Below, one piece after another: positions 7,203 to 51,731 of a stretch of DNA of 53,750 bases; position 1 is the stretch's first letter; every line of letters starts with the position of its first letter. The notes below the pieces were generated by a model. The model was not told the origin of the DNA, ran no database searches, and worked only from the letters and a program-made list of their open reading frames with translations. Source of the DNA: Coriobacteriaceae bacterium (GTDB lineage: Bacteria > Actinomycetota > Coriobacteriia > Anaerosomatales > D1FN1-002); contig PNNM01000001.1 of NCBI GenBank assembly GCA_013824215.1, positions 1-53,750 on the forward strand, read 5' to 3'. A program made the translations under genes and the position numbers.

Positions 7203-8582
7203 CTACTTGCCTCGGGCGGTCCTCCGGGCGCGGAGTACGGTGACCCCGATGACCCCGAACAGGGCCGCGAGTCCGATCACAGCGATGATCGCGAGGTTCT
7301 TCAGCCCTTGGTCGGGATTCCGGCCGTCTCTGGCGGCGGCCTCACGCTCCGCGGCGGCGGCCTCCTCTGGTGAACTGAAGACCGCCAGCACCGACTTGGC
7401 CATCTCGGTCGTCGGGATCTTCACGCCAGCCTCTTCGGCCATCTTCTCCGAACACGAGCGGTAGTTGAGGACCGCCTCCACGGTGACGCCGCCGTCCTGC
7501 GGCATGGCGTACTCGGAGGTGAACGTCTTGGAGCCCTTCGGCGGGATACGCGTGTCGCTCTTCACGGACACGGCGTCCCAGACCTCGGCCGGGAACCTGC
7601 CTCTCGCGTCCGCCAGAACGGTGTTGAAGTCGTGCCGCTCGGAGACGAGCTTGCTGCCGCCCGCGTCGGTGACGGTGACCTGCAGCCAACACTCCCGCAC
7701 GTCAGTCAGACCGGTCGGCAGGTAGTGGCCGGCGCCCGAGTTGACCACGGTGACGGCGATCTCGGCCTTCTTCCCGGGCTCGACGATCTCTTGAGCCTCG
7801 AGCTCCAGCGTCGCAGCGCCCTTCAGGCGCTCCTCGGCCAAGGCGGCGTTGCCCAATCCGACGTTGCCGCCAGCCCACGTCATCGTGTAGATGTGCGGCC
7901 TTTCGGGGCCGAGCCCGGAGGCCCTTCCCGGATTCGGCTTGGTGACACCGGCGCCCGGGGTCATGTGGCAGTCCTGGCAGGTGATCCCCTGCTTCGCGTA
8001 CTCGCTCTTGGACCATTCCGTGTAGGTGGCCTCGAGCGGTAGTCCGTTGGCGGGATGGTTGACGTTGTGGCAGACGCCGCAGAACGCGGCCTGCTCGTGG
8101 TAGTTGGAGTACGCCGTCTCGTGCGCCGGGGACAGGGCGTCCTTCAACTGCGCGCGCTTCACGCCGTTGGCGTCGATCCTCCAGGAGAAGTTGCCTGGCG
8201 GCATCGCCGTCCCGGTGAGCTGGTGGCAGAAGTCGCAGCTGACGGCCTCGGCCGCCGAGCCCGAACGCGACTTGCCCTTCTTGCCCACGAGCCCCGCCAT
8301 CGCGGCGACGGGCCCGTGGCAGGTCTCGCAGAACGGGCCGAGCGCACCATTGGTGGCCCGATTCGCCTCGGAGAGCTTCAGCTGGTAGATGGGGTCCACG
8401 AGCGCCTTGCTGTGCATCGTCGTGCGCCACTGCTCGAGGAAGGCCGTGTGGCACCCGCAGTTCTCGACCACATCGAACTTGGACTGCGGCACCTTCGGCA
8501 CGGCCGCCGACGCGATGGCGGGGACCGCGGCTCCGACCAGCGCCGCGAGAGCGAGCGTCACCAGGACCCGGATCCTCGTCAT
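7203..8582 (-). CDS. Pentaheme c-type cytochrome with Sec signal peptide and C-terminal TM anchor
   Basis: Five CxxCH motifs (CGCH, CETCH, CDFCH, CGVCH, CQDCH). Signal peptide MTRIRVLVTLALAALVGAAVPAIASA. The C-terminal half is non-heme and beta-rich (NSGAGHYLPTG). The terminal helix is LAIIAVIGLAALFGVIGVTVL followed by RARRTARGK. Confidence 0.8.
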   Translation of the reverse strand: MTRIRVLVTLALAALVGAAVPAIASAAVPKVPQSKFDVVENCGCHTAFLEQWRTTMHSKALVDPIYQLKLSEANRATNGALGPFCETCHGPVAAMAGLVGKKGKSRSGSAAEAVSCDFCHQLTGTAMPPGNFSWRIDANGVKRAQLKDALSPAHETAYSNYHEQAAFCGVCHNVNHPANGLPLEATYTEWSKSEYAKQGITCQDCHMTPGAGVTKPNPGRASGLGPERPHIYTMTWAGGNVGLGNAALAEERLKGAATLELEAQEIVEPGKKAEIAVTVVNSGAGHYLPTGLTDVRECWLQVTVTDAGGSKLVSERHDFNTVLADARGRFPAEVWDAVSVKSDTRIPPKGSKTFTSEYAMPQDGGVTVEAVLNYRSCSEKMAEEAGVKIPTTEMAKSVLAVFSSPEEAAAAEREAAARDGRNPDQGLKNLAIIAVIGLAALFGVIGVTVLRARRTARGK

Positions 8583-22740: not shown

Positions 22741-23145
22741 TGTGGATAGTGTGGAAAACCGAGCGCCCACGCACGCGCTTCCTGTGGACAGACCTCGGGC
22801 GTGCATTGTGCGCCTGCGGCGGCCGTTGCTAGAATCGGCGGCGTTCCGGTTGCGGCCCATCGATCCGCAAACCGCCTTGAAATCGCCCGTATTCAGGCCA
22901 CACAAGCTCCAGGCCCGCGCACCCGCGAAGCCCTGCGCCGCAACAGCTGTCGCCGCACTTCCGGTCCGGGAGGACCCGTTGGACGTCTCGCTCCCGCGTA
23001 TCCACACCGCAGGCCTCCCGACACCGTGCCGGCGCGCCTCGCGCGAGCGGGCCTCGCCACGGAGCGCTGTCGCCCGACGGGAGTTATCCACAGCCCGCAC
23101 GGGGCTGGGCGCGGGTGTCCACAGTTGTGGGCCGCCTGTGGACAA
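22741..23145. other. oriC part 1: DnaA-box cluster in the rpmH-dnaA spacer
   Basis: Boxes close to TTATCCACA/TGTGGATAA: TGTGGATAG (22741), TGTGGAAAA (22750), TGTGGACAG (22783), GTATCCACA (22998), perfect TTATCCACA (23084), GTGTCCACA (23115), TGTGGACAA (23137). Confidence 0.75.
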
Positions 23146-24852: not shown

Positions 24853-25075
24853 TGTGGAGTTCCGGACGGCCAAGCTGTGGAAGACCCGCTCTTCCTGTGG
24901 ATGCAGCCGGAAGGGCTCCCTGCCTGTGGATGACCAGCGTGTATCCGCCAACAGGGGTTTCCTTATGGATACGCCCGCCTCCATGTGCGGGGATGCGGGT
25001 TTTCCCCATTATCCACAGCCCTACTGTGTCTGCTATTCGTGATATGAAGAGGTAAGGAACAAACCGAAGAAGAAG
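24853..25075. other. oriC part 2: DnaA boxes plus an AT-rich candidate unwinding element in the dnaA-dnaN spacer
   Basis: Boxes: TGTGGAGTT (24853), TGTGGAAGA (24876), TGTGGATGC (24895), TGTGGATGA (24924), TTATGGATA (24963), perfect TTATCCACA (25009). These are followed by about 45 nt at roughly 39% GC (tgctattcgtgatatgaagaggtaaggaacaaaccgaagaagaa). Confidence 0.75.
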
Positions 25076-29886: not shown

Positions 29887-30435
29887 ATGGCCGAGGACAG
29901 GCGCGACACGAAGGGCTTCGAGCCACCGCCATGGGAGCGGGCGGCGTTCGAGGAGCTGCGACGCAAGCGGGAGGCAGCAGCCGCGGACCGGGACCTCTCG
30001 GAGGCGGTCGATGCGCTGAGGACCGGGACGGAGGAGCCTGCGGAGCGGCAAGCGCCACCGTCGGGACCGGAGCCGGAGGTTTCGGCGCCGGCGCCGATGC
30101 GGGCCGAGCCTCCCGCCGAGTCCCTGGCGGAGGAGCCGGCGGCGCCGGAGAAGCCCGCTTTGGAGGAGCACCGGGTCACCGCGATGCTCGCGGAACTCGC
30201 GGCGCTGGAACCGCAGCCGATGCGGGAGCTGTGGATGGTGGAGGTGGGGGCGGGAGTGTTCCTGGCGCTCCTGGGCCTCTCGGTGTTGGTCTGGGGGTTG
30301 GTCGGCGGCGCGCGCGCGGTCTCGAGTCCGGAAGCCGCGCCCTTCGCCCTCGTGATGATCGTGTTCGGGGCCTCGTTCATCGCACTCGGGCTGTGGCTCG
30401 GGCGTCGAGGCCTCAGGAATAGAGGAGTCGGATAA
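29887..30435 (+). CDS. Hypothetical membrane protein inserted between gyrB and gyrA (acidic/Pro-rich N-terminus, 2 TM helices)
   Basis: High GC3 bias. TM helices VGAGVFLALLGLSVLVWGLVGG and FALVMIVFGASFIALGLWLG. Its TAA stop directly abuts the gyrA GTG start. Confidence 0.55.
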   Translation: MAEDRRDTKGFEPPPWERAAFEELRRKREAAAADRDLSEAVDALRTGTEEPAERQAPPSGPEPEVSAPAPMRAEPPAESLAEEPAAPEKPALEEHRVTAMLAELAALEPQPMRELWMVEVGAGVFLALLGLSVLVWGLVGGARAVSSPEAAPFALVMIVFGASFIALGLWLGRRGLRNRGVG

Positions 30436-33888: not shown

Positions 33889-35175
33889 GTGTCCAAGGGC
33901 AAGATCATCGCGGCTGTGATCGTGCTGCTCGTCGTGGTGGGCGTGGTGGCCGCCGTGGCGATGGGCGCGCGGAACTCGGCGCCCGAGGTCGAAACGGCTC
34001 AGGTCTCCAAGGACGATCTCTCTGTGACGGTGAGCGCCTCGGGCAAGGTGGAGGCGGGCGACCGCGCCGACGTGTTCCCGCCGACATCAGGAGTGCTCGA
34101 GGCCGTCTACGTCACCGACGGGCAGAGCGTCAAGGCGGGCGACCCGATCGCCGCGCTCGACACCGAGCCGCTGGCCCTCGGGGTCGAGCAGGCGCGTGCG
34201 GGCGTGAGTGCGGCGCGCGGGCAGCTGGCCGGGATCGACAAGCAGGCACCGTCCGCGGCCGACCGGGCCGCCGCGGACGCGGCGGTGGCCGCCGCATGGT
34301 CGTCCTACGAGCAGGCGCGCGGGTTCTACGACGACCTGAAGGAAGTCTACGACGAGACCACCATGACGGTGATCAAGGAGAGCATGGAGCCGACGCTCAC
34401 ACAACTCGAGATAGCCAAGCTCGGCGCGTACTCCGGCTACCAGGGCGCCAAGGCCGGTCAGGCCAAGGCCGAGATGTCGTTCGCAGCCGAGCGGGCGGCG
34501 GCGCAGGCCGGCGTGGATGCCGCGGAGGCCGCGCTATCAGCTGCGCACAACAGCCTCGCGAAGGCTGAGATGGAAGCACCCATCGATGGCATCGTGCTGT
34601 TCAACGCACTGGGCGCTCCGGCGGCCGACGGCGCGGTGCCGAAGGCGGCCGAGGGAGCCGCGGTGGGGCCGCAGGCCGCGCCGTTCACGGTCGTGCAGCT
34701 CGACTCGCTGCGCTTCGCCGCCGAGGTCGACGAGGTCGACATAGACCGCGTCAAGCTCGGCATGAACGGCATAGTCACGTTGGATGCGTTCCCTGGCGAA
34801 GGGTTCGAGGCTCCCGTCACGAAGCGCAGCTCCGCTGCCCAGCTCACGGCCACCGGGGGTACCGTCTTCCCGGTGTACCTGGATCTGGCGGATGTGGCCA
34901 AGGAGTTGCTCATCGGCATGAAGGGCGATGTCGAGATCCAGGTCGAAGCGGTCAAAGCCACGCTCTCGGTGCCGATCGAGGCCATCTTCGACGAGGACGA
35001 CAAGCAGTTCGTCTACGTGGTGAAGGATGGAGCGGTGGAGAAGCGCGAGGTCGAGACGGGCGTCATGACCGACACGCGCGCCCAGGTCGTCAAAGGTGTC
35101 AAGGCTGGCGAGCAGATCGCGCTATCGGGTTCCGTGGAACTCAAGGACGGCATGCAGGTCAGGGTGAAGCAGTAG
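33889..35175 (+). CDS. Efflux transporter periplasmic adaptor (HlyD/MacA family)
   Basis: GTG start after GAGGAGG. An N-terminal TM anchor, the lipoyl-like motif [18 protein letters not shown], a coiled-coil region and a C-terminal beta-barrel (V.TG......[10 protein letters not shown]). Confidence 0.85.
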
Positions 35176-35177
35176 GG

Positions 35178-35971
35178 ATGCCCGAGCAGGCGCCACCCGC
35201 GTCTGCCGCCACTGCGAGCACCTGCGGCGAAGGCCGCGTGGTGCTCGAGGCGCGCGGCGTGGACAAGACGTACCAGATGGAGGGCCTGGAAGTCCGGGCC
35301 CTCCGCGGCGTCGACCTCCGGATCTGCGAAGGTCGGATGCTCGCGGTCATGGGTCCCTCGGGCTCCGGCAAGTCCACGCTCATGCACATCATCGGCCTGC
35401 TGGACCGGCCGACGGCCGGATCGGTGCGGGTCGAAGGCGAAGAGGTCTCGCACATGGCGCCCAACGAGCTGGCCGCGGTGCGCAACAAGCGGATAGGGTT
35501 CGTCTTCCAGTCCTTCAACCTCCTACCGCGCACCTCGGCCCTCGCCAACGTCGAGCTCCCGCTCGTGTACGCCGGGGTCGGCGGGGGCGAGCGCGCCCGC
35601 CGGGCTCGCGAATCGCTCGAGCGCATCGGTCTCGGCGACCGCCTCGGCCACTTCAGCAGCCAGCTCTCCGGCGGCCAGCAGCAGCGCGTCGCCATAGCGC
35701 GCGCGCTCGTCACCGAGCCGAGCATCGTGCTGGCCGACGAGCCCACCGGCAATCTGGACTCGCGCTCCGGCGTCGAGGTCATGTCGATCCTGCAGGACCT
35801 GAACCGTCAAGGGATCACGATCATCGTCGTCACCCACGACCCGAGGGTCGCGCAGCACGCCGAGCGCATCGTCCACCTCAGCGACGGCCGCATCGTGAGA
35901 CACGAGATCGTGGAGGATCGCACCTGCGCCGATGACGAGATGGCCGAGATCCTCGCGCGGGCGGAGGAGGA

Positions 35972-35975
<4 letters not shown>
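35178..35975 (+). CDS. ABC transporter ATP-binding protein (MacB/LolD-type)
   Basis: Walker [13 protein letters not shown]-loop FVFQSFNLL, signature [15 protein letters not shown], Walker [12 protein letters not shown]. Confidence 0.92.
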
Positions 35976-37165
<1,190 letters not shown>

Positions 37166-38212: not shown

Positions 38213-38289
38213 GGGCTCGTAGCTCAGTTGGTTAGAGCGCACGGCTGATAACCGTGAGGTCGATGGTTCGAATCCATCCGGGCCCACCA
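38213..38289 (+). tRNA. tRNA-Ile (anticodon GAU), CCA encoded
   Basis: Cloverleaf read by eye: acceptor GGGCTCG/CGGGCCC (one G-U pair), D arm GCTC-AGTTGGTT-AGAGC, anticodon arm CACGG-CTGATAA-CCGTG, T arm GATGG-TTCGAAT-CCATC, then discriminator A and CCA. Confidence 0.9.
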
Positions 38290-40068: not shown

Positions 40069-40091
40069 CGCCCGGCGCGCCGGAGGATCCG

Positions 40092-40901
40092 ATGGAGGGA
40101 GCGAAGATGAGTCGTCACCACGACCGGACCAAGGTCCTGCTCGTCGATGATTCCCAGGCTCTGCGCGAGATAGCGGCGTTCACGCTTGAGCACATGGGCG
40201 AGTACGACGTGGATGTCGCCGAGGACGGCCGCGCGGCACTCGGCCTGCTCGCCGACCGTTTCTACGACGTCATGATCGCGGACTTCTCGATGCCCGGGAT
40301 GAACGGGATCGAACTCACCCGGGTGGCGCGCGCCATGCCGCTGCACGCGGGCATGCCGGTGATACTCATGACCCATGACGAGGACCCCCGCTTGGCGGAC
40401 GCCGCGCAGAAGGCGGGCGTATCGGGCCTGATCGCCAAGCCGCTGCATCCCGAGGCGATGCAGGAGGCCATCGGATCGGCCCTGCGCTCGGCCGGGGCGC
40501 CTGAGACCGCCGTCGCCCCCGAGGACGCCGCTCCGATCGGCATGCAGGCGGTGCTCGACGCGTTGCCGCACCCGGCGATGATCCTGGATGCCGACCACGC
40601 CGTGCTGCTCGGCAACCGGGCGTTCTACCGGGCGACCCGCGCGAGTATCGGGGACTGCGGGCTCAGCTGCGCCGATGTGATGCATCGAGACGGAGCCCCG
40701 GCGGACTGCCCGCTCGTCGAAGCGGCCAGGACCGGGATGTACGTGGAGCGCGCGATCATGGACACGGTCGCCGGACCGATGCTCGTCGGGGTCTACCCGC
40801 TCGAACTCGCCGACGAGCGCGGCAAGCGGCTGTTCCTGCACATCACCAGGCCGCTGACCGGCGGGCTGGCCGGTGCCGGGGTCCCACCCAGCCGGGCCTG
40901 A
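40092..40901 (+). CDS. Response-regulator receiver protein with a C-terminal PAS-like, Cys-rich sensory domain (no DNA-binding output)
   Basis: REC domain: VLLVDDS, the phospho-acceptor context MIADFSMPGMNG, and GLIAKP. C-terminus: AMILDADHAVLLGNRAFY...GDCGLSCADVMHRDGAPADCPLVEA. The alternative start ATG 40107 follows GGAGGGAG. Confidence 0.75.
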   Translation: MEGAKMSRHHDRTKVLLVDDSQALREIAAFTLEHMGEYDVDVAEDGRAALGLLADRFYDVMIADFSMPGMNGIELTRVARAMPLHAGMPVILMTHDEDPRLADAAQKAGVSGLIAKPLHPEAMQEAIGSALRSAGAPETAVAPEDAAPIGMQAVLDALPHPAMILDADHAVLLGNRAFYRATRASIGDCGLSCADVMHRDGAPADCPLVEAARTGMYVERAIMDTVAGPMLVGVYPLELADERGKRLFLHITRPLTGGLAGAGVPPSRA

Positions 40902-41015
40902 GGCACGTCTGCGGGCGGGTTGGTCAAGCGCGCCGCCTCGCGACCCGCTCTGGCGCTGGTCTCGGCCGCTCTGTTAGGGTTCGGCAAGGGGCAGCCACGG
41001 GGGAGGCGCGACGAC

Positions 41016-41243
41016 GTGAACATAGCCGAGGCGGTCAAGGACGTCCTGGAGCCCTACGTCGGCCATATGGTCGCCGATACGTGTGTGCGGGCGACAGCGC
41101 TGTCCATCGGCAAGACCTCCGACACGCTGGACGCCGCCGACCTTCCCCCGCTCGAGAACAACGTCCGCAAGCTCCTGCTGCCCATCGCGCCGAGCTCGAC
41201 CATCGACGCGCTCATCGCGCAGATCGAGAGGAACGTCGCATGA
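41016..41243 (+). CDS. Hypothetical 75-aa protein
   Basis: GTG 41016 lies 9 nt after GGGGGAGG, and the stop overlaps the next gene's start (ATGA). I recognise no family. The track ORF start at 40920 is less well supported. Confidence 0.45.
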   Translation: MNIAEAVKDVLEPYVGHMVADTCVRATALSIGKTSDTLDAADLPPLENNVRKLLLPIAPSSTIDALIAQIERNVA

Positions 41244-42049
41244 GCGGCCGCGTGCTGTCGCGCTACACGGTCCTCATGGTCGCGCTCATGCTCGGTTCCG
41301 TCGCGGTGGCGGCCGGCCTCAACTACTTCCCGGTGCTCGGGGACACGGTCGCGCTGTGGGCGGCCGACCTCGGCAGCGTGGCCGTCGTCGGTCTCGCCGC
41401 GGCCATCGTCGTGGGCACGGCGTACTGCTTCGGCAAGGGTCAGCCCGGCAGGCTCTACTGGATGCTCGTCGGCGTCGGGGCGGCCATGTACGCGCTCGGC
41501 GACCTGGTCTGGAGCATCTACGAGCTGGCGGGCAACGAGGTCCCGTACCCTGGGCTCCCGGACGCGTTCTACCTGGCCGAGTACGTGTTCCTGACCGCCG
41601 GGCTGGCGTACGCGGCGTGGAGCTATCGCTCGCTCGGCGACATCAAGATGCCGCTCGCCCTCAGCGGGGCCGTCGGGGCGGCCGCAGCGGGGGGGCTCTA
41701 CGTCTGGTTCCTGAACCCGCTGGTCCTCTCGGACCCTGAGATCGCGGCCGGGGAGAAGGCGCTCGGTGTCGCGTACCCCGCGTTCGACGTGTTCCTCGCG
41801 TTCATGCCCGCGGTCCTCATCATCCTCATGGTCTCGCGCCTCGGGTGGGGCAGGTTCGGCTGGCCTTGGTGGGCCGTGGCCGTAGGCGTGCTCTTCATCG
41901 CGGCGAGCGACACCGCGTACGCGTGGCTCGCCGCCGTGGACAGGTACGAGAGCGGCATGATCCTCGACTACGGATGGATGCTCGGACACGTCGCGATCGC
42001 GACCGGCGCCCTGCTCGCCCGCGACGTCACGCGGGTGCCCAGGGCCTGA
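41240..42049 (+). CDS. Polytopic membrane protein (about 7-8 TM helices) resembling stand-alone membrane sensor modules
   Basis: Consecutive hydrophobic helices with repeated aromatic/Pro/Asp motifs (YALGDLVWSIYE, PYPGLPDAFYLAEYVFL, AYPAFDVFLAF, SDTAYAWL). There is no soluble output domain. Confidence 0.65.
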   Translation: MSGRVLSRYTVLMVALMLGSVAVAAGLNYFPVLGDTVALWAADLGSVAVVGLAAAIVVGTAYCFGKGQPGRLYWMLVGVGAAMYALGDLVWSIYELAGNEVPYPGLPDAFYLAEYVFLTAGLAYAAWSYRSLGDIKMPLALSGAVGAAAAGGLYVWFLNPLVLSDPEIAAGEKALGVAYPAFDVFLAFMPAVLIILMVSRLGWGRFGWPWWAVAVGVLFIAASDTAYAWLAAVDRYESGMILDYGWMLGHVAIATGALLARDVTRVPRA

Positions 42050-42056
42050 CCGGGGC

Positions 42057-45000
42057 CTATCCGCCCAGCAGGACGACCCGCACGCGTCTCGTCCCGGCGT
42101 CCCGTTCGAGCGGGACCCTCGGCTCCGGCAGGCGCACGCCGTCGAGTTCCACGTACGCCACGCCCCTGTTCACGCCACGCGGGTTCTCGACCTCGATCTC
42201 GTAGGTCGTCCCGTCGGCCCGGTACCGCATCGAGTATCCGCCCCAGGACTTCGGGATGCAGGGGTCCACGACGAGGTGGCGGTGCTCCTCCTCGGCGATG
42301 ATGTCGAGGCCGAGCAGCCAGCGCACCACCACCCGGTAGAACCACGACGCCGAGCCCGTGTACCAGGTCCAGCCGCCGCGCCCGACGTGTGGTCCGACGG
42401 CGTAGACGTCAGCGGCCACGACGTAGGGCTCGACCTTGTAGACCCCGACGGCCTCAGGCGTGAGCGCGTGGTTGATCGGGTTGATCAGATCGAGCAGGGC
42501 GAGCGCCTCGTCGCCGTCGCCGGTGAGCAGGTAGGCGAGAGCCACCCACACCGCCGCATGCGTGTACTGCCCGCCGTTCTCGCGCACGCCCGGGACGTAG
42601 CCTTTGATGTAGCCGGGATCGTGGGACATCCGGTCGAACGGCGGGGCGAGCAGCATGATGAGGCTGTCGTCCCACCGCACCAGACGCTGCTCCACCGCCT
42701 CGAGGGAGCGCATCGCCCGCTGACGGTCGCCGGAGCCCGAGATCACCGCCCAGGCCTGCGCGATGGCGTCGATGCTGCACTCGTCGGAGGCGCGGGTGCC
42801 CAGCGGGGTGCCGTCGTCGAAGAACGCACGCCGGTACCATGCTCCGTCCCACGCCTCGCGCTCGACCGCCTGCACGAACCGCGCGGCCGTGGCGCGGTAC
42901 GCCGCCGCGCGAGCCGCGTCCCCGCGGCGCTCGCAGACCTCGGCGAAGCTGCGCATCGTCACGTCCAGGAACCACGCGAGCCACACGCTCTCGCCCGATC
43001 CCCCGAGCCCGACCCGGTTCATGCCGTCGTTCCAATCGCCGCCCCCGATGAGCGGGAGGCCGTGCGGCCCCACTCCGAGGCTGGCGTCGAGTGCCGCGCA
43101 GCAGTGCTCGTAGACGGTGCCGGACAACTGGGAGTACCCCGGTTGCACGTAGAGGTCCTCGACGCCCTCGGCCAAAGGCTGCGCGTCGAGGTACGCGGTC
43201 GTCTCGTCCAGCACGCTCAGGTCGCCGGTGGCGCGCACGTACTCGGCGACCACGAACGGCAGCCAGTTGCGGTCGTCGGTGAAGCGCGTGCGGACCCCTC
43301 GGCCGGACTCCGGCTGCCACCAGTGGAGCACGTCCCCCTCGGGGAACTGCCGGCGCGCGCACTCCACGATGTGCGCGCGGACCAGGTCCGGCCGCACATG
43401 GAGCGCCGCCAGCGAGTCCTGCAGCTGGTCGCGGAATCCGAACGCGCCGGACGACTGGTATGTCGCCGTGCGCCCCCAGAGCCGGCACGAGAGCACCTGG
43501 TAGAGCAGCATGCCGTTCACGAGCCGGTCGAGTGCGGCGTCCGGTGTGGCGATCTCCACCGCGTCGAGCACGTCGGCCCAGGCCGCCTTCGCCGAGGCGA
43601 GCGCTTCCTCGACCGCGCCCGCGCGCCGGTACCGCGCCACAAGCTCCCGTGCCTCCGCCAGTTCCGCCGTCTGGCCGAGCATGAACGAGATCTCGGTGCT
43701 CTCGCCGGGTGCGAGATCGACGCGAACCATCAGCGCGCCGCAGTTGTCGTGGAACCGCCCGGTCACGCCGCCCAGGCCCTTGCGTCCCATGGCGGCCGGA
43801 TGCGCCGGGCAGCCGTTGCGGCCGATGAACTCGGTGCGGCTGCCGGTGAAGCCGCACGTCTCCCGGTCGCAGGCCAGGAACGCGGGCCGGCCGGGGAAGT
43901 CCGGGTTGAAGTGGTTGTGCGCGGTGAGGATCCGCGCCTCCGGGTCGTAACACGTCACGACCTGCTGGTTGGCCCTGCTGCGCGAGCTGCCGAGCACCCA
44001 CTCGACCATATGAGTGACGCTCAGCGAGCGGGCGCCGGCCGTGGCGTTGGTCAGTCGCAGCCGGGCGATGCGCACCGGGTCTTGCGGCGGCACGAACCAC
44101 GTGAGCTCCTGGACGATGCCGTGCGAGGTGTGCTCGAAGATCGAGTACCCGCGGCCGTGGCGGGCGACGTAGGTCCCCTCTGCGCGGGCCGGCGCCGGCG
44201 TCGGACTCCAGTACTCGCCGGTCTCCTCGTCGCGGATGTAGGTCGTCTCGCCGGAGCCGTCGGTGACCGGGTCGTTGTTCCAGGTGGTTATCCGGTTCTC
44301 GTGGCTGTTCTCCGCCCAGGTGCAGCCGATCCCGGCCTCGGACACGAGCGTGCCGAAACGCGGACCCGCGATCACGTTGATCCACGGCGCCGGGGTGGTC
44401 TCGCCCTCCGCCAGCCGAGTGACATACTCCCCGCGCGCCACGTCGAAGCCGCCGAAGCCGTTGTCGAACTCGAGGGCCAGCCGTTCCGGGACGGGGGCCG
44501 GCCATCCGCCCGGCTCGGCTCTCGGCACGAGCGGATCCGGGGGCGCGGGCCGCTTGCCGCGCTGGTTGAGCTGGAGCACGATCGGCCCGCCGTCGCCGGT
44601 AAGCGTCGCCCTGGCCACCGAGAGCAGGAGGTTGAGCACGTCCGGGTGCATCTGGTCGGCGCGTCGCAGGAACACACCGCCCGGGCGGTCCTGGAGCTGC
44701 AGCGCGTGGCCGGTCCTGACGAGCAGCCGCAGACGGTCGGCGAGTTCGTCGGCGTAGCCGGTCGGCCGCGTGTTCAGCACCACGAGGTCCGCCACCAGCC
44801 CCCGGTGCCGCCAGTACTGGTGCGCGAGCAGCGCTTGGCGCACGAGCGGTGTCTCCTCGACGCGCTCGATGCGCACGAGCAGGATCGGCAGGTCTCCCGA
44901 GATGCCGAGCGACCACAGCCCGTCCATCTTCAGGCCGTTCTCCACCGCGGTCTTGACCTTCAGCGGCGAGTGCGGGTCGGTCAGCAGCAGCCGCGAGGCG

Positions 45001-48000
45001 AGCCGCTGGAAGGTCACCGCGTCCTCGGCGGAGATGCCGAGGTCCCGCAGTTCCACCTGCCCGGCCGTCCAAGCCAGGTCGGCCGCGCGCTGGGCGCTCC
45101 GGATGTCGCCGTACTTCTCCACGAGCCGGGCGGCCTCGTCGCGCTCCCGCGCCACCCCGGTGGAGAACACGATGCGGGCGGTCGCGCCCGGTCCGACGGA
45201 GAGGGCATGGCGGATCGCGCAGACCGGGTCGAGCACGGCGCCCGAGATCCCCGACAGTTCCGCTGCCGCATCGAGCGCGGCGGGAGCGTGCACGTCGCGA
45301 AGCCGGCCGAGGAAGCGCGCACGATCGGTCTCGTACGACGAGGGGCACTCCCCGTCGGACTCGCACGCCAGCACGTGGAAGCCCCAGGGGCGCGCCTCCT
45401 CGGCGGAGCGCGGGCGGCGCGAGAACAGGAGCGCACGTCGGGGCTCGTCGGCATGGGTCTCGACGAACAGGTTGGAGAAACCCTTGTGTGCCTGGTCGGC
45501 GCCCTGCGGCGCCATCGCCACCTCGAGGTACGAGGTGACCTCCAGCCGGCGTTCCACGCGGGAGTGGTTCGTGAAGGTGATGCGCCTGACCTCGACATCG
45601 TCCTCGGGCGAGACGACCACCTCGTAGTGCGTGTCGATCTCACCGTCGGTGCGCCACCACTCGGCGCGCGCCTCCGAGAAAGTCACATGGTAGTCGTCCG
45701 CCGTCGCGAGCGACGGCTGGTGCGCGGCGGACCAGACACGGTCCTCGTCCACATCGCGGACGAAGAAGAAGGTGCCCCAGCAGTCGCGGGTGATGTCCTC
45801 GCGGTAGCGGGTGACGGCGAGATCCTCCCAGCGCGAATAGCCGCCGCCGGCGTTCGTGACCATGACCGAGTAGCGTCCGTTCGACAGGAAATGCGTCGCC
45901 GGGGTGGGTGTGTCCGCGAGCGGGTAGCTGCGCGCCACCGGAGCGGGCAGCTCGCGCACGGAGCGCACGAAGCGGACCTCCTCCACGTGCGGCGTCGCGA
46001 GCTGGACGTGCCTCGGCACGCGCTCCTGCAAGAGCAGTTCGGCCGAGCGCACCATCGGGTCCGCGTGGAAGCGCATCCGCATGCGATGGCCGGTCAGCTC
46101 GCCCCCCAAGGCCACCATCCCCATGCCGTGGTGGTGCGCGAAGTACGCGCGTACGATCGCGCGTTCCTTGCCGGCCGGCACGCGTCCCGGCGTGTAGTCC
46201 ACGGCCTCGTAGAAGCCGAACCACCCCTCGGCCCCGCGCTTCCTGAGCGCGTCGAGGTTGGCGATCGACGCGGCGCGGTCCACCTGCAGCGCCAGGAGCG
46301 TCGCGTACGGGGCGACGACCACGTCGCCGGACAGACCGCGCTTCAAGCCGAGGCCGGGCACGCCGAACGCCTGGTACTGGTAGGTGAGATCGGCGTCCTT
46401 GGCGTTGAACGCGGACTCTGAGACGCCCCACGGCACGCCGCGTTGGCGTCCGTACTGTATCTGGCGTCTGACCACGGTCCCGTACGTCTCGTCGAGCAGC
46501 GTCTCCCGCCAGGACCGCATGACGAGCAGCGGCATGAGGTACTCGAACATCGAGGCGCTCCACGACACGAGCGCGTTGCCCGCGTCGGTGCGCGTGATGG
46601 GCCGTCCGAGACGGAACCAGTGGTCCTGGGGGACGTCGCCCTTGGCAACGGCGAGGAAGGAGGCCAGACGGCACTCGGAGGCGAGCATGTCGTAGTAGGA
46701 GTTGTCGAGCCGGCCCTCCGAGGTGTTGAAGCCGATCGAGAAGAGCTGGCGGCTGCGGTCGTACAGCATCCTGAAGTCCGTGTGTTCCCACATCTCGCGT
46801 GCGATGTCGACCTCGAGACGGAGCTGCGCGAGCGTCGTGACGCAGGCCGGTCGGGCGTTGTGCACCCCGGCCAGCACGGCCTCGGCCCAGGCCGCCGCCG
46901 CACCGCACGTCTCGGGATCCTCGCCGGGCGGGTCCGTCGCGATGGCGGTGAGCGCGTCGAGCGCGCGGTCGAGGCCCTCGGCGAGGCCGACCAGCGAAGG
47001 TGTGTGCTCGAGCAGCGGGCAGAGGTCCTCGTAGCGGGAGCAGGCGCGCAGGGCCGGCGGCGCGCCGGCGAGAAGGGGCACCCACGGCGCCAGCGTCTCG
47101 ACGTCGCGCAGCGGCGAGCGCACCGCTTCGAGCAGCGCCGAGCAGGAGGCGCGCGCCCGCTCCACCGGCGTGGCCGGCGCGGGACCGTCCGTCTCGGGCG
47201 CGTCGCCGAGTTCGGCGAGGCGGAGCGGGATCTCCTCGGCCAAGGTGGCGAGCGAGTTGAGCAGCGCCAGCCACTCCCCTAGATTGGCCGGGGTCACCTC
47301 GAGCGAGACCCGCCGCCGCAGCCCGTCGATCTCGTCGCGGAGCCCCTCGATCGCCTCTTTGGCGTCGGAGGCGTCGCGGGCCGCGACCAGGTCCTCGAGC
47401 GCCAGCAACGCCGTGTCCGCCAGGCCGTCGAGCAGCTGGGGTCCCAGCAGCGGCGACTCGGACGCCTCCAGCAGGGCCACGCGGAGTACGAGCAGGTGCC
47501 CGGCGAGGTTGCCCGAGTCCACGGTGGACACGTAGCCCGGGCGGAGCGGCTGGAGCGTGCGGGTGTCGTACCAGTTGTAGAAGTGCCCGCGGAAGCGCTC
47601 CATGCCGGCGAGCGTGGAGACGGTGCGCGAGACACGTTCGAGCAGGTCCACGCAGGTCGTGTAGCCGAGGTCGTACGCGGTGAGGTATGCGAGCAGCTGG
47701 ATGCCGACGTTGGTGGGGGACGTGCGGTGCGCCACCTCGCCCTTCGGCTCCTCCTGGTAGTTGTCGGGAGTCAGCCAGTGGTCCTCGGCTCCCGGGAAGG
47801 TGTCGAAGAAGCGCCAGGCTCGCCGCGCGGTGCGTCTCATGAACGTGCGCTCGGCCTCGGTCGGCTCGGGAACGCTCCGGTCGATCGGGCGGGAGATGCG
47901 CCAGGCGACGTACGGCGAGACGAGCCACACCGCCGCGAAAGGCAGCACGGTGAGCAGGCGCTCGGGTCCGGCGAGCAGGGCGGGTGCGGTGAGCGCCGCC

Positions 48001-50885
48001 GCGACCGCCGCCGCCGGCCACATCCGCGCCATGAACCCGCCGAGGTCCGAGCCGAGCCTGTGCTCCGCGTCGGCGGCGGTCTCCCATTCCAGCAGGCCCC
48101 GGCGGGTGACGGTCATGCGCCACAGCGCCCTGATGATCGCGTCGAGCATGAGGTGCGCCTGGTGCGGCAGCATCGTCAGCGAGAGGAACGCGCGGGCCGA
48201 GTCGCGGCCGAAGTCCTTCCAGGCGGTGTGGAACGACGAGCTGAAGCTCACCGTCTGGGGGCGGAACAGCATCGAGTCGGCGAGCGAGAAGTAGGCCGGG
48301 AACAGCAGCACGGTGAGCAGCATGATGTCCCACTGCCATGCGCTCCCGGGCAGGAGGTACCAGCCGGCGAACGCGAGCAGGAGCGTGGCGGGTGCGAACA
48401 GCGAGCGCCTCAGGTTGTCGAGGATCTTCCACCGGTGCAGCAGCGACAGTGGGTTCGGCTCGCTCCCGCCGTTGTCCAGCGGCACCCGGAGCGCCAGCCA
48501 CGGCAGGGTCTGCCAGTCACCGCGGACCCAGCGGTGCACGCGCGCGCATTGCGGGGCGTAGCTGGACGGGTGCTCGTCGAAGACCTCCACGTCCGAGACC
48601 AGGGCCGTGCGCAGGTAGCAGCCCTCGAGAAGGTCGTGAGAGAGCAGGGAGTCGTGCGGGACGCGTCCCTCGAGCGCGGCGATGAACACGTCCACCTCGA
48701 AGATGCCCTTGCCGGTGAACGAGCCCTCGCCGAAGACGTCCTGGTACGTGTCGGAGACGGCACCCGCGTACGGGTCGATGCCGGTGACGCCGGAGTAGAG
48801 CCAGGCGAAGAAGGAGCGGCCGGCAGCCGGCAGCGACATGCCGACGCGCGGCTGCACGAGGGCGTAGCCATCCGTGACCCGGCGCAGGTCGGCGTCGTAG
48901 ACCGCGCGGTTCAGCGGGTGGGCGATCGTGGAGACGAGCTTGGCGGCGCCGTCGCGCGGAAGGATGGTGTCGGCGTCGAGCGTGGCGACGAAGGTGACGT
49001 CGGCCAGAGGGCCCCGCTCGCCTGCGACGTGCGCGAACGACGTGTCCGTGGCGCCGCGCAGGTAACGCGCCAGCTCGGTGAGCGCGCCGCGCTTGCGCTC
49101 CCAGCCCATCCAGGTCTGCTCGCTCTCGCAGAACCTGCGCTCGCGGACGAAGGCGAGGAACGGACGCCGCCCGTGCTCCGCCTCGTACCGCGTGTTGAGC
49201 TCGTCGACCCCCTTGAGCGCCGCCTCCACGATCGCCGGGTCGCCGGGCGCGTGCGCGGCGTCCGCGGCTTTGAGGTCGCCGAGCACACCGAATCGCAGGT
49301 TCGGGTCGGGGTTGGCCAGGTACGTGCGTTCGAGGTTCTCGAGCACGGCCGAGGTGGCCTTCACCGACGACAGGAGCGCGGGGACCACGACGAGCGTGGC
49401 GTGCGCGTCGGAGATCGGGCGGCGGTAGTCGAGCTTGGGGAAGACACGCGGCGGCCAGAGCATCGCCGCGAAGCGGTTGGCGATGTTGATGCCGAGATCG
49501 CTCATCGGGACGACGCCCAGGAGCAGGAGCAGCGCGACCGCCCATGCCGGCAGCCCCATCGCGATCGCGTACCACCCGAGCGAGAGGACGAGCGCGACGG
49601 TCACCGTTCCGAGCCCGCCCCAGTAGATGAGGCCCCGGTGCGAGAGCGGGCCTCGGTAGAGGCGCTCACGCAGCCGCGGCCGGTACCCGATGCTCTCTTC
49701 GAACACGTAGCGCCCGCGGCTGATCAGGTAGTGTCCGACGTGTCCGCGCACGAGGTCCGAGGGATCGCGCGAGATCGCTTCCAGCGACCAGCTCACCGCC
49801 GCCTCGGCCACCTCCACCTCCGAGAACTCGCACCGCTTCGCCAGCTCCTCGAGGCCATGGCGGAGACGGTCCCGGCTGCGGAAGTCCATCCGGTGGTAGA
49901 CGTCCGCCGGGTCCTGTCTCAAGACGTGCTCCACGATGCAGGTGCGCTCGAAGAACGAACGCCAGTCGAGCGCTTCGAGCAGCCGGATGCTCGTGATCGA
50001 GTTGGCCACGGACACCTGGTTCGCCGCCTGCTCCTGCTGTTCGGCGTGGACGGCCAGTTCGAAGGAGGTCCCCGCGGAGGTGACGCGTCCCTCGAGCCAC
50101 TCATTGATGTCGGCGGTGACGGCCTCCTTGCCCTGGAGCCGCTGGGCGAGACGGCGGAAGAACGCGGCCTCGGCGCCCGGGTGCTCGGTGTCCAGACGCG
50201 ACAGCAGTCCGGCGACCTGGTCCGGGGCCTCCTGCGCGGAGGTGAGCAGGCGGTCGGCCCAGTCGTCGGCGGCGTACTCGTCGAGCTGGGCCCGGACGAC
50301 ACGGTCGGCGATGCGCCGCACGTTCTCGATCAGCGCGACGCGCAGCATGATCGGCACGGCCCAGACCTCGCCGATGGACAGCGGCGAGGAGTCCTGGAAA
50401 CCCATCACGAATCGGAGCAGGAACTCCTCGTCGAGGCGCGCGTCCGTGTGCGACACGAGCGCCACCGCGGCCCCGTACACCCGGGGGTTGCCGGCCAGCT
50501 CACCCGAGGTCAGCCGCGGCAGCTCGAGGCCGTAGTCGGCAGGAAGGTCCTCGCGCACCGTGCGGACCTGGCCCTCGAGCAGATAGTAGTTGTCGAGCAG
50601 CCATTCGCTGGCCGGCGAGACGGCGCGCTGGGCTTGGGCGGAGACTGCGAGGATCGAGTTGCACCACGCCAGATGAGTCGCCGCGCTCTGCACCATGTCG
50701 AGCAGAGGCGTGGTCCGCGCGTGTCCGCCGGTCGTCCAGACCTGCGCGGCCGCGAGCTCTGCCGCGCGCTCCGCCGCGCGCTCCGCGGTCAGCAGTTCTC
50801 CGCGGAACGGCGGGTCGGCCTGCGCGGGCCGAGGTGTGCGAGTCTCGTCCGAGGTCCCCATACGCTTCGTGAGACGTCCCCCCAT
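42057..50885 (-). CDS. cgs: Cyclic beta-1,2-glucan synthase (Cgs/NdvB/ChvB-type: N-terminal cytoplasmic region, TM helices, GT84 glycosyltransferase, cyclization region, C-terminal GH94 phosphorylase-like domain)
   Basis: N-terminus: EWLLDNYYLLEGQ, PRVYGAAVALVSHTD, IGEVWAVPIMLRVALIENVRR. GT84: WMGWERKRGAL, ATLDADTILPRDGA, AHPLNRAVYD, LVQPRV, FTGKGIFEVDVF, LLSHDLLEGCY, RVHRWVRGDWQ. Central region: SPTNVGIQLL, HFYNWYDTRTLQPL, VSTVDSGNLAGHL, SWSASMFEYLMP, GVPWGVSESAFN, FGVPGLGLKRGL. GH94: NGFGGF, PAPWINV, FGFRDQLQD, LHWWQPESGRGVRTR, GGGDWNDGMN, ENGGQYTHAA. The start is uncertain (ATG 50945, 50927, 50885 or 50861). Confidence 0.9.
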   Translation of the reverse strand: MGGRLTKRMGTSDETRTPRPAQADPPFRGELLTAERAAERAAELAAAQVWTTGGHARTTPLLDMVQSAATHLAWCNSILAVSAQAQRAVSPASEWLLDNYYLLEGQVRTVREDLPADYGLELPRLTSGELAGNPRVYGAAVALVSHTDARLDEEFLLRFVMGFQDSSPLSIGEVWAVPIMLRVALIENVRRIADRVVRAQLDEYAADDWADRLLTSAQEAPDQVAGLLSRLDTEHPGAEAAFFRRLAQRLQGKEAVTADINEWLEGRVTSAGTSFELAVHAEQQEQAANQVSVANSITSIRLLEALDWRSFFERTCIVEHVLRQDPADVYHRMDFRSRDRLRHGLEELAKRCEFSEVEVAEAAVSWSLEAISRDPSDLVRGHVGHYLISRGRYVFEESIGYRPRLRERLYRGPLSHRGLIYWGGLGTVTVALVLSLGWYAIAMGLPAWAVALLLLLGVVPMSDLGINIANRFAAMLWPPRVFPKLDYRRPISDAHATLVVVPALLSSVKATSAVLENLERTYLANPDPNLRFGVLGDLKAADAAHAPGDPAIVEAALKGVDELNTRYEAEHGRRPFLAFVRERRFCESEQTWMGWERKRGALTELARYLRGATDTSFAHVAGERGPLADVTFVATLDADTILPRDGAAKLVSTIAHPLNRAVYDADLRRVTDGYALVQPRVGMSLPAAGRSFFAWLYSGVTGIDPYAGAVSDTYQDVFGEGSFTGKGIFEVDVFIAALEGRVPHDSLLSHDLLEGCYLRTALVSDVEVFDEHPSSYAPQCARVHRWVRGDWQTLPWLALRVPLDNGGSEPNPLSLLHRWKILDNLRRSLFAPATLLLAFAGWYLLPGSAWQWDIMLLTVLLFPAYFSLADSMLFRPQTVSFSSSFHTAWKDFGRDSARAFLSLTMLPHQAHLMLDAIIRALWRMTVTRRGLLEWETAADAEHRLGSDLGGFMARMWPAAAVAAALTAPALLAGPERLLTVLPFAAVWLVSPYVAWRISRPIDRSVPEPTEAERTFMRRTARRAWRFFDTFPGAEDHWLTPDNYQEEPKGEVAHRTSPTNVGIQLLAYLTAYDLGYTTCVDLLERVSRTVSTLAGMERFRGHFYNWYDTRTLQPLRPGYVSTVDSGNLAGHLLVLRVALLEASESPLLGPQLLDGLADTALLALEDLVAARDASDAKEAIEGLRDEIDGLRRRVSLEVTPANLGEWLALLNSLATLAEEIPLRLAELGDAPETDGPAPATPVERARASCSALLEAVRSPLRDVETLAPWVPLLAGAPPALRACSRYEDLCPLLEHTPSLVGLAEGLDRALDALTAIATDPPGEDPETCGAAAAWAEAVLAGVHNARPACVTTLAQLRLEVDIAREMWEHTDFRMLYDRSRQLFSIGFNTSEGRLDNSYYDMLASECRLASFLAVAKGDVPQDHWFRLGRPITRTDAGNALVSWSASMFEYLMPLLVMRSWRETLLDETYGTVVRRQIQYGRQRGVPWGVSESAFNAKDADLTYQYQAFGVPGLGLKRGLSGDVVVAPYATLLALQVDRAASIANLDALRKRGAEGWFGFYEAVDYTPGRVPAGKERAIVRAYFAHHHGMGMVALGGELTGHRMRMRFHADPMVRSAELLLQERVPRHVQLATPHVEEVRFVRSVRELPAPVARSYPLADTPTPATHFLSNGRYSVMVTNAGGGYSRWEDLAVTRYREDITRDCWGTFFFVRDVDEDRVWSAAHQPSLATADDYHVTFSEARAEWWRTDGEIDTHYEVVVSPEDDVEVRRITFTNHSRVERRLEVTSYLEVAMAPQGADQAHKGFSNLFVETHADEPRRALLFSRRPRSAEEARPWGFHVLACESDGECPSSYETDRARFLGRLRDVHAPAALDAAAELSGISGAVLDPVCAIRHALSVGPGATARIVFSTGVARERDEAARLVEKYGDIRSAQRAADLAWTAGQVELRDLGISAEDAVTFQRLASRLLLTDPHSPLKVKTAVENGLKMDGLWSLGISGDLPILLVRIERVEETPLVRQALLAHQYWRHRGLVADLVVLNTRPTGYADELADRLRLLVRTGHALQLQDRPGGVFLRRADQMHPDVLNLLLSVARATLTGDGGPIVLQLNQRGKRPAPPDPLVPRAEPGGWPAPVPERLALEFDNGFGGFDVARGEYVTRLAEGETTPAPWINVIAGPRFGTLVSEAGIGCTWAENSHENRITTWNNDPVTDGSGETTYIRDEETGEYWSPTPAPARAEGTYVARHGRGYSIFEHTSHGIVQELTWFVPPQDPVRIARLRLTNATAGARSLSVTHMVEWVLGSSRSRANQQVVTCYDPEARILTAHNHFNPDFPGRPAFLACDRETCGFTGSRTEFIGRNGCPAHPAAMGRKGLGGVTGRFHDNCGALMVRVDLAPGESTEISFMLGQTAELAEARELVARYRRAGAVEEALASAKAAWADVLDAVEIATPDAALDRLVNGMLLYQVLSCRLWGRTATYQSSGAFGFRDQLQDSLAALHVRPDLVRAHIVECARRQFPEGDVLHWWQPESGRGVRTRFTDDRNWLPFVVAEYVRATGDLSVLDETTAYLDAQPLAEGVEDLYVQPGYSQLSGTVYEHCCAALDASLGVGPHGLPLIGGGDWNDGMNRVGLGGSGESVWLAWFLDVTMRSFAEVCERRGDAARAAAYRATAARFVQAVEREAWDGAWYRRAFFDDGTPLGTRASDECSIDAIAQAWAVISGSGDRQRAMRSLEAVEQRLVRWDDSLIMLLAPPFDRMSHDPGYIKGYVPGVRENGGQYTHAAVWVALAYLLTGDGDEALALLDLINPINHALTPEAVGVYKVEPYVVAADVYAVGPHVGRGGWTWYTGSASWFYRVVVRWLLGLDIIAEEEHRHLVVDPCIPKSWGGYSMRYRADGTTYEIEVENPRGVNRGVAYVELDGVRLPEPRVPLERDAGTRRVRVVLLGG

Positions 50886-51026
50886 TCCTTGGTTCCCTGT
50901 GCGACGGTCGGCGCGAAGTTCGCTCATGTGCGGGGCAGGGAACATTCTCGCACGTCCGGGTTTGGTGGCGTCGGGATACCCGGCGGGGTATACTTGGAGC
51001 GGCACAGTCTCTCGATCGGAGATGGC

Positions 51027-51731
51027 ATGGCGGGCAGGAAGTGGCTGATCTGGGGTGCGGTGGCGGTGGCCGTCGCCGGGCTGGCATACGTGGTCAGCAG
51101 GCCGTCGGCTCCGGCGGCGGGCGACGTCGATGCCTCGGCGTTCGCGGGTCTCGTCGCGGACGGGGTGCGCGTCATCGACGTGCGCACCGCCGGAGAGTAC
51201 GAGGGCGGGCACATCCCCGGTGCGGAGAACGTGCCGGTCGACACGGTCCCGCAGACGTCGCAGTCGTGGGACAAGACGCAGCCGATAGCGGTCTACTGTC
51301 AGACCGGCGCCCGTTCGGCCAACGCGATGTCCTACCTCACCGGGCAGGGTTTCGCCACCGTGTACAACCTGCGCGGCGGCATCGTGGAGTGGAGCGGGGA
51401 ACTCACCCGGGGCTCGGCGGCCGGGACAGCCGCCGGTGCCGTGAAGATCGCGACCAACGGCACCCCGGTCCTGATCGACTTCTCCGGCAGCGCTTGACCC
51501 ACCTGCATCGAGATGAAGCCTGTGGTCGACAGGTTGGAGCAGGAGTTCAAGGGCAAGGTCGAGTTCAGGGTCTACGTGGACGACTCAGGCCCCGACAACC
51601 TAGCCGGCACGCTCGGCGTCCAGTACGTGCCCACCTATGTCTTTGTGAACACGGACGGTTCGATCGCCCAGCAGGTCGTCGGCGGTATGGCCGAGGAGGA
51701 CATGCGCAAGGCGCTCGAGGCCCTGAACTAG
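51027..51731 (+). CDS. Signal-anchored rhodanese / thioredoxin-fold fusion; predicted selenoprotein with Sec at TGA 51495-51497 (UPTC redox motif)
   Basis: N-terminal anchor MAGRKWLIWGAVAVAVAGLAYVV. Rhodanese motifs VIDVRTAGEYEGGHIPGAENVP and the active-site loop YCQTGARS. TGA 51495 is in frame with ORF 51513..51731. Read-through gives PVLIDFSGSA-U-PTC-IEMKPVVDRLEQEFKGKVEFRVYVDD...QYVPTYVFVNTDGS, a complete Trx fold with the cis-Pro in register. If TGA is a true stop, the products are 51027..51497 (rhodanese) and an orphan fragment. Confidence 0.6.
51502..51543 (+). promoter_or_regulatory. SECIS-like stem-loop immediately downstream of the candidate Sec codon
   Basis: Lower stem CCTGC (51502-06) / GCAGG (51539-43). 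Upper stem AGCCTGT (51517-23) / ACAGGTT (51529-35), with one G-U pair. Apical loop GGTCG (51524-28). The first loop G is 26 nt after the UGA. Confidence 0.45.

Follow-up and report, generated by a model that had tools for sequence, protein, structure and literature searches.

The window examined here is a 54-kb stretch of DNA (53,750 nucleotides; positions 1 to 53,750 of contig PNNM01000001.1, assembly GCA_013824215.1) from a metagenome-assembled genome (MAG) labelled "Coriobacteriaceae bacterium"; its ParA, GyrA, GyrB and DnaA proteins correspond to NCBI proteins MBA4369962-75 of that MAG. [quoted passage not shown] The likeliest extent of the gene is 42057-50861, corresponding to 2,934 codons and a stop at 42057-42059, as judged from the open reading frame (ORF) and its translation, from comparison of the N terminus with related proteins and from the periodicity of G+C content at third codon positions (GC3).

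The reading frame was intact from the stop at 42057 to the longest possible start at 51212 and remained open to 51584. ATG codons at 50945, 50927, 50885 and 50861 were candidate starts, giving proteins of 2,934 to 2,962 residues, and GC3 periodicity in the cgs frame was lost upstream of about position 50800. The related proteins were 2,911 to 2,941 residues long and shared an N-terminal PFRGELL motif that was located 13 to 35 residues from their starts. Because of these lengths and this conserved motif the ATG at 50861 was favoured, and it appears to be the start that fits best. An initial annotation of the locus had given a length of 2,950 to 3,000 residues; the range of 2,934 to 2,962 is slightly lower. 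In the NCBI record the product (P0005, "hypothetical protein C0418_00200") has 2,878 residues, a length that agrees with a GTG start at 50693. On the comparison with its relatives, the start called in the MAG is judged to lie too far downstream, cutting off the conserved PFRGELL segment (50693-50861). Residue numbers below are counted from the ATG at 50945; 28 is to be subtracted for the start at 50861.

Domain architecture and active sites of the Cgs protein

In phmmer searches of the PDB, the protein matched the Agrobacterium tumefaciens Cgs structures 8RF0 and 8RF9 (E = 0, 2051 bits) over query residues 99-2925, with the 8RF0 alignment falling into two stretches that were broken only at a variable insertion in the cyclization (CY) domain. 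The top PDB match for the central domain was the cyclization domain of Thermoanaerobacter italicus (8WY1, E = 1e-141, with E = 1e-126 for the best match of the central domain). Pfam analysis placed a Glycoamylase match (a GH144/GH189-like fold) at residues 1417-1612, followed by two GH94 supersandwich stretches and a GH94 catalytic domain at 2456-2879. The N-terminal domain (NTD), transmembrane (TM) segments, GT84 domain, further TM segments, CY domain and GH94 region were therefore collinear in one polypeptide, within the approximately 2,800 to 3,000 residues expected of a family member, as read from the phmmer alignments and the Pfam order. Consistent with the initial annotation, which had proposed that a single gene of about 9 kb reproduces the full Cgs architecture, all twelve motifs that it quoted were found in the translation.

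The NTD, a predicted cytoplasmic scaffold that aligned with the NTD of the Agrobacterium enzyme, occupies residues ~85-435 (49641-50693, minus strand) and includes the motifs EWLLDNYYL and IGEVWAVPIML. It is followed by a TM hairpin, TM1-TM2, at residues ~438-485 (49491-49634, minus strand), which was identified from hydropathy peaks and aligned with the same region of 8RF0. The GT84 domain spans residues ~500-845 (48411-49448, minus strand), and the TM3-TM6 region spans residues ~849-1015 (47901-48401, minus strand). Hydropathy analysis gave two helices at ~440-485 and three more at 849-867, 876-894 and 997-1015, together with a weak one, TM5, near 965-985. By analogy with the six-helix TM domain of the Agrobacterium enzyme, these are best described as about six helices in three pairs, with none extra.

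The CY (GH189) domain, delimited by alignment to 8WY1 and 8RF0, spans residues ~1021-1655 (45981-47885, minus strand), and the GH94 phosphorylase region, comprising GP1, a Rossmann-like insert, GP2 and GP3 and identified with Pfam, spans residues ~1656-2962 (42060-45980, minus strand). A helical insertion at ~1191-1380 of the CY domain, with 240 residues between the flanking anchors, was considered as a possible novelty of the clade described below. This idea was rejected, since lengths of 155 to 284 (median 220) were found across 81 homologues; one aligned alphaproteobacterial locus (L049) had about 155, compared with the 240 of the window protein, which is still within the range of the family.

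Residues of experimental importance have been reported for the Agrobacterium enzyme (D527, R586, D624, D626, Y694, D739, R773/W774, R776, S1101, D1104, E1300, D2393 and D2528; PMC10901819) and for the T. italicus enzyme, TiCGS (E1356, E1400, E1442, H1536 and H1537, PMC10834661; D1127, review PMC11842490). These residues were mapped through the 8RF0 and 8WY1 alignments, using the 8RF0 chain numbering, which was verified as native on the DxD motif, and the 8WY1 chain index plus 1003, which corresponds to TiCGS numbering (construct 1005-1591). All 18 were present in the window protein, and all 18 positions were invariant in an alignment of that protein with 119 relatives, in which 491 of 2,962 positions were invariant. 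The catalytic residues, the loss of which the initial annotation had named as grounds for doubt, are thus retained.

In the GT84 domain, D557, R617, D657, D659, D771, R805, W806 and R808 correspond to Agrobacterium D527, R586, D624, D626, D739, R773, W774 and R776, respectively; by this mapping D557 is the UDP-binding aspartate, D657-x-D659 the DxD motif, D771 the catalytic base and R805-W806 the RW motif. Y726, which lies in a GIDPY motif in the IF1-homology (IF1h) loop and is invariant in the clade, aligned with the priming tyrosine Y694 and is the putative autoglucosylated priming tyrosine. The CY domain contains S1140, D1143, E1424, E1468, E1510, H1604 and H1605, the counterparts of which include Agrobacterium D1104 and E1300; mapping to TiCGS assigned E1510 as the nucleophile (E1442) and E1424 as the acid/base (E1356). 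In the GH94 domain, D2506 corresponds to Agrobacterium D2393 and the catalytic acid D2640 to D2528.

The protein therefore resembles Agrobacterium Cgs/ChvB (8RF0, 8RF9; Sedzicki et al. 2024, PMC10901819), Brucella Cgs and Sinorhizobium NdvB in domain order and in a predicted set of about six TM helices, and it is identical to the Agrobacterium enzyme in the GT84 residues, the priming tyrosine, the acidic residues of the CY domain and the catalytic aspartate of the GH94 domain. The comparison with the Agrobacterium protein was made by bit score only (2051); homologues from outside the clade were about 40-50% identical to the window protein. The C-terminal ~800 residues also aligned end to end with GH94 cellobiose and chitobiose phosphorylases (E = 1e-88), catalytic aspartate included, and 1,2-beta-oligoglucan phosphorylase is named among the GH94 phosphorylases (PMC10901819). 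In contrast to those enzymes, the phosphorylase unit in the window is one domain of a 2,900-residue membrane synthase.

The initial annotation had stated that the characterised Cgs enzymes come from Proteobacteria, a view that is now outdated. Thermoanaerobacter italicus is a Firmicute and lies outside the Proteobacteria. Its cyclization domain, TiCGSCy, the founding member of GH189, has been characterised and its structure solved (8WY1; Tanaka et al. 2024, PMC10834661). The residues E1356, E1400, E1442, H1536 and H1537 of that domain are all conserved in the window protein; work on TiCGS was confined to the isolated domain, and the two proteins belong to different clades, that of the window protein being specific to Coriobacteriia. 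By every sequence criterion that could be applied, the window protein is placed in the Cgs family, and it differs in the probable envelope of its host, the lack of a linked exporter and the clade to which it belongs.

Distribution and descent of cgs

Relatives of the protein were sought with a pattern scan based on the conserved GDWNDGMN motif, using one genome per species, and were found in at least 599 genome stretches from at least 14 phyla. Taxonomy was taken from the best 80 of these stretches, which came from Acidobacteriota, Planctomycetota, Verrucomicrobiota, Nitrospirota, Chloroflexota, Gemmatimonadota, Elusimicrobiota, Spirochaetota, Myxococcota, Bdellovibrionota, Ignavibacteria, Desulfobacterota-type lineages, Clostridiaceae, Actinomycetota and Proteobacteria. 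Three loci (L001, L003 and L063) encoded proteins that were 62-64% identical to the window Cgs, and all of the others among the best 80 were at or below 50%. In neighbour-joining analysis the window protein and these three formed a clade with a bootstrap value of 100/100 that was not nested among proteobacterial sequences; its nearest outsiders were just 47-50% identical, and none was a close proteobacterial sister. Within the clade, identity across the eight protein segments compared ranged from 39 to 78% and was 53-55% for the NTD.

At least 120 protein database clusters were 59-68% identical to the window Cgs, the nearest relatives being labelled Coriobacteriia, Anaerosomatales, Actinomycetota or Actinomycetia, and the 10 clusters that were looked up contained MAG proteins only. 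The possibility raised at the outset, that the gene might be common and already characterised in close relatives, was borne out as to its frequency; none of the relatives has been characterised. NCBI names for proteins of the clade were "hypothetical", "glucoamylase family" or "GH36-type", and database names such as "cellobiose phosphorylase", "glucoamylase family protein" or "GH36-type glycosyl hydrolase" cover just one part of these proteins. Several members carry the JGI label "cyclic beta-1,2-glucan synthetase".

The chromosomal position of the gene was also conserved. The order gyrA, HAD, membrane-fusion protein (MFP), MacB ATPase/permease, BFN nuclease, (DEAD helicase), cgs, rhodanese-thioredoxin, (glnK-amt) was kept in L001 and in L082/L083, where GyrA was 80% and 71% identical, respectively, to that of the window (the L082/L083 contigs measure 1.08 and 2.04 Mb), and cgs was convergent with gyrA in L001, L082 and L083 as it is in the window. 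The locus L001 (CAZIPN010000009.1) is labelled "uncultured Eubacteriales bacterium", yet with GyrA at 80% identity and an 11-gene block of synteny with the window it is almost certainly a Coriobacteriia relative under the wrong taxonomic label.

The initial annotation implied that cgs had been acquired horizontally, and the phylogenetic and GC3 checks that it proposed gave the opposite result. A recent gain from a proteobacterium or some other diderm donor, with cgs forming a foreign island, might be suggested by the proteobacterial origin of characterised enzymes and by the lagging-strand position of cgs, which its housekeeping neighbours do not share. Recent acquisition was rejected because the GC3 of cgs is native (0.91 in its own frame, compared with 0.81-0.96 for the other ORFs of the contig), because the clade is confined to Coriobacteriia with 100% bootstrap support, and because its synteny is conserved. 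The conserved orientation, the lack of a close proteobacterial sister and the size of the clade, with its 120 or more members, also argue against such a gain, which is extremely improbable. The cgs gene was inherited vertically rather than acquired and is neither foreign nor aberrant. It is evidently, from its sequence features, an ancient, conserved and functional-looking Cgs gene of a Gram-positive-type Coriobacteriia clade.

Genomic setting and neighbouring genes

The Pfam scan of about 50 main long ORFs of the window revealed the gene order of an origin of replication, parB-parA-rsmG-jag-yidC-yidD, followed by dnaA-dnaN-recF-dciA-gyrB-gyrA. With the pattern TTRTCCACA and at most one mismatch, the window gave 16 DnaA-box matches, compared with 5.2 expected by chance, and these included clusters at 22741-23145 and 24925-25017. 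GC skew switched sign near 25 kb. The cgs gene lies 17-26 kb to the right of this origin, and it was placed on the lagging strand, head-on to replication, on the basis of the DnaA-box clusters, the change of sign in GC skew and its minus-strand position. These data supported both the actinobacterial-type origin synteny and the head-on orientation that had been described initially. The DnaA-box-like sites flank dnaA, seven of them lying upstream of the gene and a further two between dnaA and dnaN, and the clusters on either side of dnaA suggest that oriC is bipartite.

Immediately downstream of cgs lies a convergent plus-strand gene (41240-42049) for a 269-residue polytopic membrane protein with no Pfam family, identified by its GC3 phase; the two stop codons are 7 nt apart. 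It is the last gene of a plus-strand operon (40089-42049) that also includes a response regulator whose C-terminal domain is PAS-like and rich in cysteine (40089-40901) and a 107-residue protein (40920-41243), again with no Pfam family. Homologues of the 107- and 269-residue proteins were encoded beside cgs, on its downstream side, in L081, the closest relative, and near cgs in L003. A minus-strand ORF at 41054-41989 was considered as an operon partner of cgs and was ruled out by its GC3 phase, which showed that the plus-strand ORF is real. There was no terminator-like hairpin between the operon and the cgs stop codon, and scans for sigma-70 promoters and intrinsic terminators revealed none in the 5' region of cgs or at the 7-nt convergent junction. 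Rfam and tRNA scans of the window detected only tRNA-Ile (38213-38289), with no riboswitch or leader near cgs.

On the other side of cgs is a divergent plus-strand gene (51027-51731) for a membrane- or signal-anchored rhodanese-thioredoxin fusion. It contains a single in-frame TGA codon (51495-51497), with which the thioredoxin redox motif (U-P-T-C) opens. The periodicity typical of coding sequence ran on through this codon, and when cysteine was placed there the Pfam matches to Rhodanese and Thioredoxin extended across the site. The TGA codon and the UxxC motif were conserved in all five relatives examined. About 20 nt downstream of the TGA is a SECIS-like hairpin (51519-51533) with the loop GGUCG, in which two compensatory changes keep the pairing. 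The protein is therefore a probable selenoprotein, the TGA being most simply explained as a selenocysteine codon with a bacterial SECIS element; gene callers split it into a "Rhodanese" gene and a 74-residue "Thioredoxin" gene. All six clade loci had a divergent rhodanese-thioredoxin gene beside cgs, and none of the 77 loci from outside the clade did; in three clade loci it was followed by amt-glnK, as in the window. The protein is probably extracytoplasmic, and it might be functionally tied to cgs.

No ChvA/NdvA/Cgt-type exporter (fused ABC_membrane and ABC_tran domains) was detected among the Pfam-scanned genes of the window or, in L081-L083, up to 10 kb from cgs, and no succinyl- or acyltransferase was found among the same genes of the window, in agreement with the initial annotation, which had seen neither nearby. 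The sole nearby ABC system was a MacB/FtsX-type ATPase and permease with a HlyD-like MFP of the YknX type. These genes (33889-37165, plus strand) form a cluster that is conserved between gyrA and cgs, and in relatives the HlyD-like MFP carries a YknX_C domain. This domain is named after B. subtilis YknX. The setting thus differs from that of the Agrobacterium system, in which chvA adjoins chvB, both in the lack of an adjacent chvA/ndvA exporter gene and in the Gram-positive-type Coriobacteriia host. Over the regions searched it also differs from the periplasmic cyclic-glucan system as a whole (Cgs with Cgt/ChvA/NdvA, with or without the succinyltransferase Cgm), to which a dedicated exporter belongs.

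Other features of the window and related loci were also recorded. A 182-residue ORF (29887-30435, plus strand) is wedged between gyrB (end 29864) and gyrA (start 30436), an unusual insertion in this gene pair; its GC3 is high, it matched no Pfam family, the N-terminal half is acidic and rich in proline and glutamate, and the C-terminal half is hydrophobic and could span the membrane. A 459-residue ORF (7203-8582, minus strand) gave weak matches to the multihaem cytochrome c families c552, c7, c554 and c3, which agrees with the many multihaem cytochromes reported in cultured Anaerosomatales. In L082/L083, large multihaem cytochrome genes lie a few kb from cgs.

Host envelope, proposed mechanism and fate of the glucan

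The window YidC protein has 280 residues and contains only the 60KD_IMP domain, the large periplasmic domain being absent, as the initial annotation had indicated with its reference to a short YidC. Anaerosomatales is an order of Coriobacteriia, and both of its cultured species show a wall of the Gram-positive type, a G+C content of 66.6-67.7% and genomes of 1.8-2.1 Mb (PMC9686372). No outer-membrane family was seen among the approximately 90 genes of the window and L081-L083. The Coriobacteriia affiliation, the short YidC and the Gram-positive cultured Anaerosomatales are indirect evidence that points against a periplasm bounded by an outer membrane, and it is a reasonable inference that the host is monoderm. 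The earlier statement that the cell has no periplasm is in keeping with these relatives, although for the MAG itself it is not a demonstration. The gene had also been called unusual in such a genome. This description was overstated, given the presence of the family in at least 14 phyla, Clostridiaceae and Chloroflexota included, and in other monoderm lineages, the characterised Thermoanaerobacter domain and the 120 or more relatives in Coriobacteriia MAGs.

The reading preferred here, with a probability of about 85%, is that cgs encodes a Cgs that would make cyclic beta-1,2-glucan by an Agrobacterium-like mechanism and that has been inherited vertically in an order-level environmental clade of Coriobacteriia near Anaerosomatales/OPB41. 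By homology to the Agrobacterium enzyme, about six TM helices would anchor the protein in the cytoplasmic membrane and every catalytic domain would be cytoplasmic. The GT84 domain would use UDP-glucose to glucosylate the enzyme's own Y726 and then extend a beta-1,2 chain, the length of which would be limited by the GH94 domain through phosphorolysis. The GH189 domain, with E1510 as nucleophile and E1424 as acid/base, would cut the chain and close the ring by transglycosylation, and a cyclic beta-1,2-glucan of about 17-25 glucose units derived from UDP-glucose would be released into the cytoplasm. [quoted passage not shown] Since the window protein is likewise predicted to have a TM domain without extra helices for a channel, export of the glucan would need an unlinked exporter, and in a Gram-positive-type cell the exported glucan would reach the medium or the zone of the wall and not a periplasm.

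Several points weigh against this reading. The Pfam match in the glycosyltransferase region was GT2-like (residues 653-882) and scored 23.8 bits against a cut-off of 27, a result that is below the gathering score because Pfam has no GT84 model, and the NCBIfam scan of the protein returned no family or model. The start codon is uncertain among the candidate ATGs. No linked exporter, modifier or UDP-glucose supply gene was seen in the 54 kb, and the head-on position near oriC speaks against high constitutive expression. The presumed monoderm envelope is deduced from cultured members of a related order. The description paper (PMC9686372) of the cultured species Anaerosoma tenue and Parvivirga hydrogeniphila, which may or may not carry cgs, makes no mention of glucan. 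The literature searched contained no link between Coriobacteriia and beta-1,2-glucans.

A diderm host, or a mis-binned contig, would return the gene to an ordinary periplasmic glucan system. MAG labels are unreliable, as the "Eubacteriales" label of L001 illustrates, an HlyD-like MFP with a MacB system is present, and the review of this field terms T. italicus "Gram-negative" and does not discuss the envelope question (PMC11842490). Mis-binning was excluded, as three independent assemblies carry cgs on one contig with dnaA, gyrB and gyrA, and the short YidC, the approximately 90 genes free of outer-membrane families and the Gram-positive cultured members of the related order make this alternative as a whole very unlikely. 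An active enzyme might instead form a different product, either a linear beta-1,2-glucan or, with the protein working mainly as a phosphorylase or transglycosylase, material derived from imported glucans. GH94 and GH189 chemistry is, by our reasoning, reversible or disproportionating, and with the isolated Thermoanaerobacter CY domain the length of the substrate determines whether linear or cyclic products arise (PMC10834661). The same isolated domain, however, makes rings with a degree of polymerisation of 17-26 (review PMC11842490), the cyclase nucleophile and acid/base are invariant, and the invariant GT84 catalytic set and priming tyrosine point to de novo synthesis; a different product is accordingly rated as quite improbable.

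If the preferred reading of cgs as a cyclic glucan synthase is correct, two fates of the glucan can be considered. In the one, to which we give slightly less than an even chance, an unlinked ABC or other transporter would export the glucan, which would then act beyond the membrane, either in the zone of the wall or in the medium. There it could form a matrix with an osmotic or protective function, or carry substrates of poor solubility in the manner of a cyclodextrin. All of the systems studied export the glucan via Cgt/ChvA/NdvA after cytoplasmic synthesis (PMC10901819; review PMC11842490), the substrates used by cultured Anaerosomatales include insoluble or hydrophobic ones, for example elemental sulfur, ferrihydrite and aromatics (PMC9686372), and the conserved rhodanese-thioredoxin neighbour is probably extracytoplasmic. 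Against export stands the lack of a ChvA-type gene in the regions searched, where the only ABC system is of the MacB/FtsX type, and a neutral glucan of 3-4 kDa would diffuse away from a cell that has no periplasm. Retention in the cytoplasm, where the glucan might serve as an osmolyte, as a carbon reserve or for crowding or protection, would be a new role for a Cgs product and is rated as somewhat less likely. It is consistent with the cytoplasmic location predicted for all of the catalytic domains, a TM domain in which no channel is predicted, the lack of a linked exporter in the regions searched and the persistence of a 9-kb gene with no visible partner in what are, in cultured relatives, small genomes (1.8-2.1 Mb). 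It has no precedent, however; only 54 kb are visible, so that an exporter could lie elsewhere in the genome, and cyclic glucans would, as we reason, be poor reserves, with a ring that resists the enzyme's own phosphorylase. The more specific suggestion that the glucan is either a retained cytoplasmic solute or a secreted carrier for elemental sulfur, Fe(III) minerals or aromatics, possibly linked to the adjacent rhodanese-thioredoxin selenoprotein, is unlikely as it stands.

Research on cyclic beta-1,2-glucans has dealt almost solely with Proteobacteria, in which they protect against osmotic stress in the periplasm and take part in interactions with hosts. Here, a conserved synthase apparently belongs to the core genes of a widespread Coriobacteriia clade whose members are free-living, anaerobic and of Gram-positive type, and a 9-kb gene represents a large investment in genomes of about 2 Mb, the size found in cultured, related Anaerosomatales. 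If the monoderm reading and the predicted activity are true, the glucan would have a role that depends on neither a host nor a periplasm. Since Anaerosomatales have cultured members, the question of where the glucan resides in a monoderm cell and what it does there would be directly approachable, provided that these members carry cgs.

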